Assembly: GCA_004321905.1 (NCBI GenBank)
Contig: SCQF01000046.1
Span: forward strand, 25,614-89,613
DNA: 64,000 nucleotides
Direction: 5' to 3'
From: Verrucomicrobiota bacterium
GTDB lineage: Bacteria; Verrucomicrobiota; Kiritimatiellia; CAIQIC01
A program made the translations under genes and the position numbers. Shown piece by piece: positions 53,142-53,639 of the stretch (the first letter of the stretch is position 1; the number at the start of each line of letters is the position of its first letter). Under the pieces are notes generated by a model. It was not told where the DNA came from and ran no database searches. It saw only the letters and a program-made list of their open reading frames with translations.

Positions 53142-53218
53142 TGCGGGGTGGAGCAGCCAGGTAGCTCGTCAGGCTCATAACCTGAAGGTCATTGGTTCAA
53201 ATCCAATCCCCGCTACCA
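53142..53218 (+). tRNA. tRNA with CAU anticodon (Met or Ile2); position 1:72 appears unpaired (U:U)
   Basis: Hand-folded: D-arm GAGC-AGCCAGGUA-GCUC, anticodon stem UCAGG/CCUGA, loop CUCAUAA, T-arm AUUGG-UUCAAAU-CCAAU, acceptor 3' CCCCGCU-A-CCA. The 5' strand UGCGGGG leaves a 1:72 mismatch, so tRNAscan confirmation is needed. Candidate promoter TTGCAT-16-TAGAGT at 53102-53129. Confidence 0.75.
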
Positions 53219-53222
53219 ATTC

Positions 53223-53256
53223 CAAGCCCGGTGGAAATTCCACCGGGCTTTTTTAT
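53223..53256 (+). terminator. Rho-independent terminator after the tRNA (AAGCCCGGTGGAA-A-TTCCACCGGGCTT followed by a T-run)
   Basis: Perfect 13-bp stem followed by TTTTTT; an identical copy lies at 53601-53634. Confidence 0.7.
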
Positions 53257-53533
53257 GGCGGCACCACATCCATATTGGGTCTATGTGCTCTGGTCGACAA
53301 CCGGTGAATGTTTTTATGTCGGCGTTACAGATGATCTCGATCGGCGGCTCGCGCAACACAACGACGGCAGCTCACAATGGACCCGCCGTTATGCCGGTTC
53401 ATGGGCATTGGTTTGGCAAAAATCATTCGACACCTTGGGCGTTGCACGCGCACATGAGAACCTGCTCAAGCGACAACGCGGCGGACACGGATTCTTCCAG
53501 CATACCGGTCTTGACCCAGCCATTTATCAATGA
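53255..53533 (+). CDS. Small GIY-YIG nuclease-family protein (YhbQ/UPF0213-like), second copy
   Basis: MAAPHPYWVYVLWSTTGECFYVGVTDDLDRRLAQHNDG...: GIY-YIG motif followed by R-X-H-N. Begins inside the duplicated terminator region. Confidence 0.75.
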   Translation: MAAPHPYWVYVLWSTTGECFYVGVTDDLDRRLAQHNDGSSQWTRRYAGSWALVWQKSFDTLGVARAHENLLKRQRGGHGFFQHTGLDPAIYQ

Positions 53534-53542
53534 CGCTCAACC

Positions 53543-53639
53543 GGCTCATAATCCCGCCGTGGCGGGATCATTGGTTCAAATCCAATCCCTGCTACCAATT
53601 CCAAGCCCGGTGGAAATTCCACCGGGCTTTTTTATGGCG
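53543..53639 (+). repeat. Partial diverged copy of the tRNA(CAU) 3' half plus terminator
   Basis: ggctcataa-tcccgccgtggcggga-tcattggttcaaatccaatccctgctacca followed by the identical terminator hairpin; lacks the 5' acceptor and D-arm. Confidence 0.8.

Follow-up and report, generated by a model that had tools for sequence, protein, structure and literature searches.

We analyzed a 64-kb window, the whole 64,000-nucleotide stretch of DNA taken from a contig of a Verrucomicrobiota bacterium, and describe a small cassette located immediately 3' of its tRNA-Met(CAU) gene. The cassette comprises a GIY-YIG nuclease gene and an incomplete, hairpin-bearing second copy of the tRNA. All coordinates refer to the window; L001, L002 etc. 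denote related loci and P0001 etc. NCBI proteins. The anchor of the cassette is an intact tRNA-Met(CAU) (53142–53218, + strand; ARAGORN, Rfam RF00005 at 63.3 bits). We take it to be of the initiator type, since its D arm is identical to that of E. coli tRNA-fMet and the two tRNAs are similar overall. Read from the sequence, U1 of this tRNA is paired with A72. A terminator-like hairpin with a 13-bp stem and a T run (53224–53254, hairpin 53224–53250, + strand) separates the tRNA from an open reading frame (ORF) for 92 amino acids, ORF2 (53255–53533, + strand, TGA at 53531–53533). ORF2 encodes an Slx1/UPF0213-like GIY-YIG nuclease domain and nothing else (PF01541, 54.4 bits; cut-off 22.6), and its product is identical to P0001, a 92-residue protein from a Verrucomicrobia metagenome-assembled genome (MAG). 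The ATG directly follows the T run of the terminator; there is no Shine-Dalgarno sequence and no promoter belonging to ORF2 itself.

The gene is bracketed by a 72-nt direct repeat (53189–53260 and 53568–53639, both + strand) detected by repeat search. The two copies are identical at 71 of 72 positions, the exception being a C>T exchange in the acceptor 3' strand, and a match of this length is not due to chance. The first copy, R, comprises tRNA positions 47–76, the terminator and the first 6 nt of ORF2. Its tRNA portion (53189–53218) consists of the last two bases of the variable loop, the T arm, the acceptor 3' strand and CCA. The second copy, R', contains tRNA positions 47–76 (53568–53597, with the C>T exchange), the terminator (53603–53629) with its T run and the hexanucleotide ATGGCG (53634–53639), which is directly followed by TGA (53640–53642). 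The initial annotation of this DNA had listed tRNA(CAU), terminator, GIY-YIG ORF and 72-nt repeat, and had placed a 92-residue ORF between the repeat copies with its ATG inside the duplicated block. ARAGORN, Rfam, the repeat search and PF01541 confirm this arrangement.

A further piece of the tRNA precedes R'. This remnant, Q' (GCTCAACCGGCTCATAA, 53535–53551, + strand), corresponds to tRNA positions ~22–38, i.e. the D-stem 3' strand, the anticodon-stem 5' strand and the loop CTCATAA, and matches the tRNA (53164–53180) at 14 of 17 positions. The diverged fragment ggctcataa that had been noticed before the second repeat copy is real and forms part of this 17-nt match. Q' and R' are joined by a hairpin, H (TCCCGCCgtgGGCGGGA, 53552–53567, + strand), with a perfect 7-bp stem, (A)TCCCGCC-gtg-GGCGGGA(T), that stands in place of tRNA positions 39–46 (CCTGAAGG). 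The order in the second tRNA copy is positions ~22–38, hairpin H replacing 39–46, and positions 47–76. H is the sole TCCCG..CGGGA match within the window and the dominant element of the DNA fold. The earlier description of the downstream copy as a tRNA 3' end with a diverged fragment was correct in both parts; it overlooked that the whole is a 5'-truncated tRNA copy in which an internal segment has been swapped for a conserved hairpin.

The window contains a second cassette of this kind at an intact tRNA-Arg(CCG) (15832–15908, + strand; ARAGORN), which the initial annotation had named as the first instance and which we indeed observed. Here the GIY-YIG gene, ORF1 (15923–16177, + strand; 84 residues, MYFVYILQS...; PF01541, 59 bits), belongs to another clade of the family and starts with GTG 15 nt past the end of the tRNA. 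It is followed by a pseudo-tRNA-Arg (16179–16239, + strand) built up from a short Q' (AGAGCG, 16179–16184, D-stem 3' strand), a hairpin CCCGGCTA-ccg-TAGCCGGG (16186–16204) that replaces the whole anticodon arm, and R'. The direct repeat is perfect over 35 nt (15875–15909 and 16205–16239) and comprises tRNA-Arg positions 43–76 plus 1 nt. The proteins encoded by ORF1 and ORF2 share 46% identity over 48 residues (E 3e-13). The two units measure 330–379 bp and contain a single ORF each. Five tRNA genes are present in the window and two of them carry a cassette. At the other three (12723–12798; 49461–49537, - strand; 62162–62236, - strand) no downstream cassette, pseudo-copy or hairpin was found. 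One of these three is a second CAU tRNA, of the elongator/Ile2 type.

For the survey of relatives we searched the ORF1-type and ORF2-type clades separately, because a combined alignment retained no conserved stretch. The sample comprised 160 loci, 80 genome loci from the ORF1-type alignment and 80 metagenome loci from the ORF2-type alignment. Protein queries for ORF2 began at 53246 and carried three extra residues, with no effect on the results. A same-strand tRNA ending at most 150 nt upstream accompanied 103 of 211 GIY-YIG matches, compared with 27 of 1900 (1.4%) mechanically called control ORFs of at least 70 residues from the same loci. Another 14 of the 211 matches had no upstream sequence, and many of the remainder stand second or third in an array. 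A repeat of the final 25 nt of the tRNA, with three mismatches or fewer, lies within ~110 nt past the ORF in 62 of 100 adjacent pairs; a shuffled control (best of 20 per locus) never came below eight mismatches. The initial annotation had postulated a family of GIY-YIG modules linked to tRNA 3' ends, as opposed to a one-off rearrangement, and had pointed to tRNA adjacency and 3'-tRNA direct repeats at homologues as its marks. Both are borne out by these counts.

More than 15 tRNA types are occupied. The ORF2 clade is found almost only at tRNA-Met(CAU) (55 cases), with additional members at tRNA-Asn. The ORF1 clade is found at tRNAs for Pro, Ala, Ile, Val, Leu, Gly, Phe, Ser, Thr, Tyr, Lys and Arg. 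The MAG labels of the genome loci span about ten phyla and include Verrucomicrobiota, Kiritimatiellia, Lentisphaerota, Bacteroidota, Ignavibacteriales, Dehalococcoidia, Patescibacteria, Gammaproteobacteria, Terriglobia and Planctomycetes. Relatives with more than 65–70% protein identity usually occupy the same tRNA type. The closest relatives of ORF2 (L001 and L002/L003, 82% and 71% identity), all on short metagenome contigs, have the same tRNA(CAU) and the same hairpin-bearing pseudo-copy. Distant homologues checked in Neisseria, Rhizobium and Planktothrix have no adjacent tRNA, and PLSDB yielded only homologues of 33–39% identity, with no tRNA nearby at the three loci inspected. The search for phage relatives of the protein gave no match. 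IMG/VR contained no match either to the pseudo-tRNA-Met plus hairpin pattern or to the ORF1-type protein alignment. Only the clades studied here show the combination of tRNA and hairpin.

The bracketing direct repeat begins at the hairpin position and continues to, or slightly past, the tRNA 3' end. Among 61 loci with a defined terminal repeat, it ends 0–8 nt past the tRNA in 45, includes the tRNA terminator in nine (42 nt in the window) and runs into a partial further unit in seven. At L001 the same terminator and ATGGCGGCACC precede the ORF, and the pseudo-copy is followed by a different terminator. Since the L001 terminators differ and most repeats stop directly after the tRNA, the 42-nt extension in the window looks secondary, as if a later, lineage-specific homogenisation had occurred or part of a further unit had been left behind. 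For the same reasons, the earlier suggestion that ATGGCG-TGA represents the original empty-site sequence is not supported. Within the 63-nt stretch that begins with GGCTCATAA and ends with the tRNA, the window and L001 show two differences, one of them in the hairpin loop, at a synonymous divergence (dS) of 0.755 between the genes. The ORF starts 0–12 nt past the tRNA in about 30 loci. This spacing leaves no room for a promoter, and the ORF is presumably co-transcribed with the tRNA and dependent on the tRNA promoter.

We are highly confident that these loci represent a widespread family of very small cassettes, about 290–390 bp in size, located immediately 3' of tRNA genes. With the same high confidence we define the unit as a short linker, sometimes containing the tRNA terminator, a GIY-YIG gene on the tRNA strand, and a 5'-truncated, hairpin-substituted copy of the host tRNA.

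Several sequence details of the units concern the tRNA parts themselves. In L001 and L002 the stop codon of the ORF is the TAA of the pseudo-copy anticodon loop CTCATAA. Other stop codons also derive from tRNA triplets: the ORF at L129:2342–2569 (- strand) of the Asn lineage ends with the TAG of GCGTAGCTC (tRNA positions 8–10), and the ORF at L014:3001–3261 with the TAG of the D-stem TAGCGC. The U1:A72 pair (TGCGGGG...CCCCGCTA or TGCAGGG...CCCTGCA) occurs in the cassette-bearing initiator-type tRNAs of the window (53142–53218), L001:590–666, L158 and L160. Most other cassette-bearing tRNA-Met loci have a C1xA72 mismatch.

The hairpin is the hallmark of the family and is conserved. A perfect stem of at least 6 bp ends at most 7 nt from the junction in 77 of 86 distinct pseudo-copy junctions, compared with 10.6% of random positions. 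Its consensus is TCCCG(C)-loop-(G)CGGGA with a perfect stem of 5–8 bp. The stem starts with TCCCG at 46 junctions, and the loops are mostly 3–6 nt long and variable in sequence. Rare stem variants are compensated (TCCGGC/GCCGGA, TCCGCC/GGCGGA, TCCTTCC/GGAAGGA, CCCCGC/GCGGGG), which argues that both the sequence and the pairing are constrained. Left and right of the hairpin, the tRNA pieces agree with the local tRNA, and the position of the hairpin is fixed per protein clade. In the tRNA-Met clade the left piece ends at position 38 and the right piece starts at 47. In the ORF1 clade (Pro, Ile, Ala, Gly, Leu, Val, Arg) the arrangement is 26|H|44, so that the anticodon arm is replaced whatever the tRNA. 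One tRNA-Asn lineage shows 24|H|35, and a Bacteroidales lineage carries the hairpin in the D arm. The last unit of a tRNA-Pro array from Bacteroidales (L038:3940–4040) has GC hairpins in place of both the D arm and the T arm (CCCCGCCgttgGCGGGG and GGTCCCGCtgtcGGCGGGACC); this double replacement suggests scars from two lineages with different target arms.

At the gathering score, Rfam 15 recognized the intact tRNA only; its matches to the pseudo-copy were below threshold and at chance level. An origin of the hairpin from the local tRNA was rejected, because identical stems occur at unrelated tRNAs. For tRNA-Pro and tRNA-fMet alone, the 3' arm of the hairpin is similar to the acceptor 5' strand; for Arg, Ile, Ala, Gly and Leu it is not. 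Folding of the pseudo-copy as a tRNA or minihelix was likewise rejected as a general explanation, since most copies are without the acceptor 5' strand and there is no covariation with the acceptor. An RNA-guided reading, with the hairpin as scaffold and 30 nt of tRNA as guide, was set aside: the supposed guide is the structured T arm and would match the carrier's own tRNA.

The cassette proteins of the family are ~85–98 residues long. In an alignment of 29 sequences the catalytic positions Y13, Y24, G26 and R34 do not vary at all, and Y10, H38 and E71 hardly do. The ratio of nonsynonymous to synonymous substitution rates is 0.13 for the window versus L001 and 0.09 for L006 versus L011, which indicates purifying selection. 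Judged by these features the protein is a conserved and probably active nuclease. An AlphaFold model of the ORF2 product is a single compact domain with a predicted local distance difference test score of 92.9. A Foldseek search of the PDB with this model returned Slx1 nuclease domains as the best matches (probability 1.0, template-modelling score 0.58–0.63, 28–34% identity), followed by UPF0213 and the catalytic domain of At-HIGLE; I-TevI and UvrC were much weaker (E > 0.1). Among solved structures, phmmer ranked the UPF0213 proteins BH0048 and EF2693 (1zg2, E 7e-4; 1ywl) nearest, then SLX1. The predicted fold is closest to that of the structure-specific branched-DNA nuclease Slx1. A separate DNA-binding module of the I-TevI/Seg type was not found in the 92-residue product. 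The defence-system, phage-family and NCBIfam libraries gave marginal matches only, and PADLOC none at a meaningful score.

Gain and loss can be followed at one tRNA-Asn locus that is represented by several contigs. The flanks are near-identical where compared (about one difference downstream between L128 and L139). L139 is an empty site in which the tRNA is followed by atgcccccattg. Three different cassettes occupy the same locus in L128, L129/L130 and L144, and L138 carries two stacked cassettes. In L137:1450–1531 and L142:1206–1287 (both - strand) we observed a full-length tRNA-Asn in which the 5' side of the anticodon stem is replaced by the hairpin. L137 retains the distal cassette only, L142 has no ORF at all, and neither locus has an intact tRNA-Asn, so another copy must exist elsewhere in those genomes. 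The scarred genes would be the expected product of recombination between the 5' part of the intact tRNA and the 5' remnant of a pseudo-copy. We infer the direction of events at this locus from the arrangements seen. The scarred tRNAs indicate that the process can destroy a tRNA gene and hence alters tRNA gene content.

Tandem arrays are present at L002, L038 and further multi-unit loci of the survey. The order in L002 is tRNA, terminator, decayed ORF, pseudo-copy, terminator, intact ORF, pseudo-copy, terminator and the start of a next ORF. At L014:2763–2950 and the equivalent position of L016, three to four ORF-less mini-units of 66–69 nt lie between tRNA-Pro(GGG) and the GIY-YIG ORF; each combines the remnant of a D stem with the hairpin, the T arm and the acceptor 3' strand. 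L158 contains a solo pseudo-copy without an ORF. ORF-less units of this kind look like remnants of deletions, as the last bases of an ORF persist.

Based on these arrangements we propose the following mechanism. The cassette would behave as selfish DNA, and homologous recombination at its tRNA-derived repeats would account for gain, loss, amplification and scarring. The nuclease would cut tRNA-gene DNA within the segment that the hairpin replaces, positions 39–46 for the tRNA-Met clade and the anticodon arm for the other clade. The replaced segment suggests itself as the cut site, since where it lies depends on the protein clade and not on which tRNA is involved. Once a naive tRNA gene had been broken, repair would draw on a carrier, with the intact tRNA as the left arm and the 3' part of the pseudo-copy as the right arm. 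In a homing-like manner, repair would copy in a tRNA 3' half together with the nuclease gene and the hairpin. Exchange between the two 3' repeats would restore the empty site, exchange between the two 5' pieces would yield a full-length dead tRNA carrying the hairpin only, and unequal exchange would produce tandem arrays. The hairpin itself would probably serve as a cis-acting structure for a structure-specific nuclease or as a barrier in the recombination intermediate.

We assign a probability of about 0.5 to this reading as a whole, as a compromise between its two parts, the family and the mechanism, which differ in strength. That the units form a mobile cassette family is very probable. The specific break-and-repair route, with a cut in the replaced segment, the nuclease as initiator and RecA-type repair, is offered tentatively and is less likely than not. 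A bolder version is somewhat more doubtful still. The Slx1-like nuclease might read folded tRNA-gene DNA by shape, with the hairpin as its cis site, and the units might constitute a new class of autonomous element of ~300–380 bp. It is similarly speculative that the folded form is a cloverleaf or a set of arm hairpins in single-stranded or extruded DNA, presenting the same structural cut position in many tRNAs.

A number of points weigh against the proposed mechanism. Cleavage and mobility are themselves deduced from sequence comparison. An intact, unaltered tRNA stands upstream in essentially all loci, and both repeat junctions of the empty site persist. The target would thus remain present in the carrier, and the immunity of a classical homing allele is missing. 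The protein consists of the nuclease domain only and, in its predicted fold, resembles structure-specific and not sequence-specific GIY-YIG enzymes. Simple homing leaves the conservation of the hairpin stem across phyla unexplained. In the ORF1 clade, proteins of 45–60% identity occur at many tRNA types, and the flanks of the hairpin always match the local tRNA. Such flanks are more easily accommodated by a mechanism that duplicates its target; arms carried by the element would require gene conversion. The empty sites could be revertants and not naive sites. Finally, no empty site for the window's own locus was recovered through relatives of TrmB, the product of the gene directly after the cassette (78–86% identity; L164–L171, with the P0037 contigs and the longest P0041 contig left out). 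The DNA upstream of trmB in L164–L171 is unrelated and contains no tRNA; synteny is not conserved.

The main rival explanation places the nuclease site in the hairpin or cruciform instead of the tRNA. Nicking or resolution beside the 3' repeat would then stimulate exchange, either by excision of a one-unit circle and its re-integration through a crossover in the tRNA 3' half, or by rolling-circle-like copying that gives more than one unit. A stem of conserved sequence with a free loop is what would be expected of a protein site read as a hairpin, and nucleases that act on branched DNA are the closest in modelled fold. On its left the repeat invariably borders the hairpin; on its right it stops anywhere between 0 and more than 50 nt past the tRNA. 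A crossover within the 3' repeat would yield the exact order observed, i.e. intact tRNA, ORF and hairpin copy. The tandem arrays fit as well, as do the seven of 61 loci with an incomplete further unit at the end (in L027 it reaches ~66 nt into another copy of the ORF, in the window it has just 6 nt, ATGGCG). This explanation accounts neither for the piece of tRNA 5' half to the left of the hairpin nor for the clade-specific position of the hairpin. Moreover, GIY-YIG enzymes hydrolyse DNA and are not known for strand transfer, 30–43 bp of homology is short for RecA, and no circle junction was seen. We consider it unlikely, though a serious competitor of the break-and-repair mechanism; the explanations that follow are less likely than this one.

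A role of the pseudo-tRNA as RNA appears quite improbable. The co-transcribed copy would be a substrate mimic that restrains the nuclease on the cognate tRNA or its gene, in the style of a type III toxin-antitoxin system or of the I-TevI operator. The pseudo-copy does lie on the same strand just past the stop codon and hence would be co-transcribed, the replaced segment is clade-specific like a cleavage site, ORF-less pseudo-copy repeats stand upstream of the ORF in L014 and L016, and the protein could be assigned to no known defence or phage family. However, the repeats reach into terminators and ORF starts, which is a signature of DNA duplication. Substitutions that break the T stem or the acceptor occur in the pseudo-copies of L138, L144, L002 and the window, and most copies are without the acceptor 5' strand and therefore without a tRNA-like fold. 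The ORF-less copies keep the 3' ends of ORFs and hence look like remnants of deletions. GIY-YIG enzymes are DNases as far as known, and three cassettes plus an empty site at one locus would remain unexplained.

Integrases that insert into tRNA genes classically leave a footprint of direct repeats that reach from the anticodon or variable loop to the tRNA 3' end. The cassette could accordingly be viewed as a miniature integrative element mobilized in trans by a tyrosine integrase, with the 3' repeats as attL and attR and the GIY-YIG gene as cargo. The span of the repeats recalls that footprint and precise empty sites exist, but the ORF lists around the window cassettes and L001/L002 show no integrase inside or beside a unit. 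The only constant cargo is one tiny gene, in about ten phyla and at more than 15 tRNA types, and neither a 5' tRNA remnant nor a hairpin substitution is a feature of att sites; the right edge of the repeat is variable as well. We regard this explanation as very unlikely. A local accident, i.e. a decayed tandem tRNA(CAU) duplication with an unrelated small ORF in between, is hardly credible: tandem tRNA genes are common and L106 has a full second tRNA-Met copy, yet two tRNAs of the window and ~80 tRNAs in independent assemblies have the cassette architecture, hairpin included, the ORF is under purifying selection, and the survey effectively refutes this explanation.

The cassettes resemble several known systems in part. 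As with islands and prophages integrated at tRNA genes by tyrosine integrases, the insert lies between an intact tRNA and a 3' tRNA fragment and can be excised precisely. The cassette differs in having no integrase and in a downstream fragment that keeps part of the tRNA 5' half and the hairpin. It is also roughly 50–300 times smaller than a typical island or prophage. Integron cassettes likewise consist of a promoter-less single ORF with a hairpin-forming site, stacked in tandem behind a fixed anchor that supplies transcription (attI). In contrast, no IntI is found near either window cassette, the site is a host tRNA plus a short perfect hairpin, and the cargo is always the nuclease. The attC site of integrons has an R''/L''-L'/R' architecture, whereas the cassette hairpin is a perfect stem of 5–8 bp inside a tRNA copy. 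A short, conserved GC hairpin at the end of the element and non-autonomous derivatives with the hairpin only are shared with IS200/IS605 and REP/RAYT elements. The cassette, however, has no HUH/Y1 transposase and one hairpin per unit instead of one at each end, and its target is duplicated.

T4 SegB is encoded by a free-standing GIY-YIG homing endonuclease gene in the phage tRNA cluster (PMC2330249). It shares with the cassettes a GIY-YIG gene beside tRNAs without an intron or intein host, and a self-inheritance thought to use breaks in tRNA-gene DNA and their repair. SegB-type proteins are larger, possess DNA-binding domains and are phage-borne, with neither duplication of the tRNA 3' part nor a hairpin. 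The cassette protein, in contrast, is a bare domain of 84–92 residues, chromosomal, and always accompanied by a hairpin-substituted pseudo-tRNA. The presence/absence polymorphism with clean boundaries at the tRNA-Asn locus is reminiscent of free-standing homing genes in general, but in cassette carriers the target is undisrupted and the protein has no DNA-binding module. Slx1 and the UPF0213 proteins (COG2827; 6seh, 4xm5, 1zg2, 1ywl; PMC1564403) have the same minimal GIY-YIG domain without the C-terminal Asn region. Slx1 differs by its RING domain and its partner Slx4, and the UPF0213 proteins have no assigned function. Dada DNA transposons are reported to insert specifically into tRNA or other small-RNA genes, and differ in being eukaryotic and in using a different transposase (PMC8869645). 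A unit of tRNA, GIY-YIG gene and hairpin-bearing pseudo-tRNA was not described in the openly accessible full-text literature searched, which included a phylogenomic paper on GIY-YIG proteins.

We regard the cassette as a probable nuclease-driven selfish element at tRNA genes, with a substantial chance that its targeting principle is new. Such an element would add to the known mobile DNA a very small single-gene cassette made up of a tRNA 3'-half rescue copy, a nuclease and a hairpin-marked pseudo-tRNA. The cassettes also provide a concrete, testable biological context for a branch of the small stand-alone GIY-YIG proteins of UPF0213/COG2827, a family with structures solved about 20 years ago and no function. 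If targeting by shape is correct, this orphan family would gain a function, and a single lineage could colonise many tRNA genes. A nuclease that reads DNA shape at tRNA genes would choose its target in a new way and might be useful as a tool. The cassettes would further account for oddities of tRNA genes such as partial copies, tandem pseudo-tRNAs and impossible anticodons (L015, L027, L038, L137, L142).

ARAGORN indeed miscalled hairpin-bearing pseudo-copies as tRNA genes at L015:362–449, L027:3227–3307, L137, L142 and L038 (2872–2948, 3236–3312, 3599–3675). The assigned identities were an 88-nt tRNA-His(atg), a tRNA-Phe(aaa), an 82-nt tRNA-Cys(gca) and a tRNA-Pro with the hairpin as its D arm. 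Such copies are a likely source of spurious tRNA annotations in cassette-bearing genomes.

The trmB gene next to the tRNA-Met cassette (53647–54237; PF02390, E 1e-40) encodes the tRNA m7G46 methyltransferase, and the hairpin boundary in the pseudo-copy coincides with tRNA position 46|47. The adjacency is probably a coincidence, given that the relatives of TrmB have no tRNA upstream. After the tRNA-Arg cassette, and before an ORF of 1196 residues (16322–19912), a 19-nt palindrome, TTTTCCAAGGCTTGGAAAA, occurs in two copies 32 nt apart (16241–16291). This pair may be a bidirectional terminator or a genome-wide repeat.

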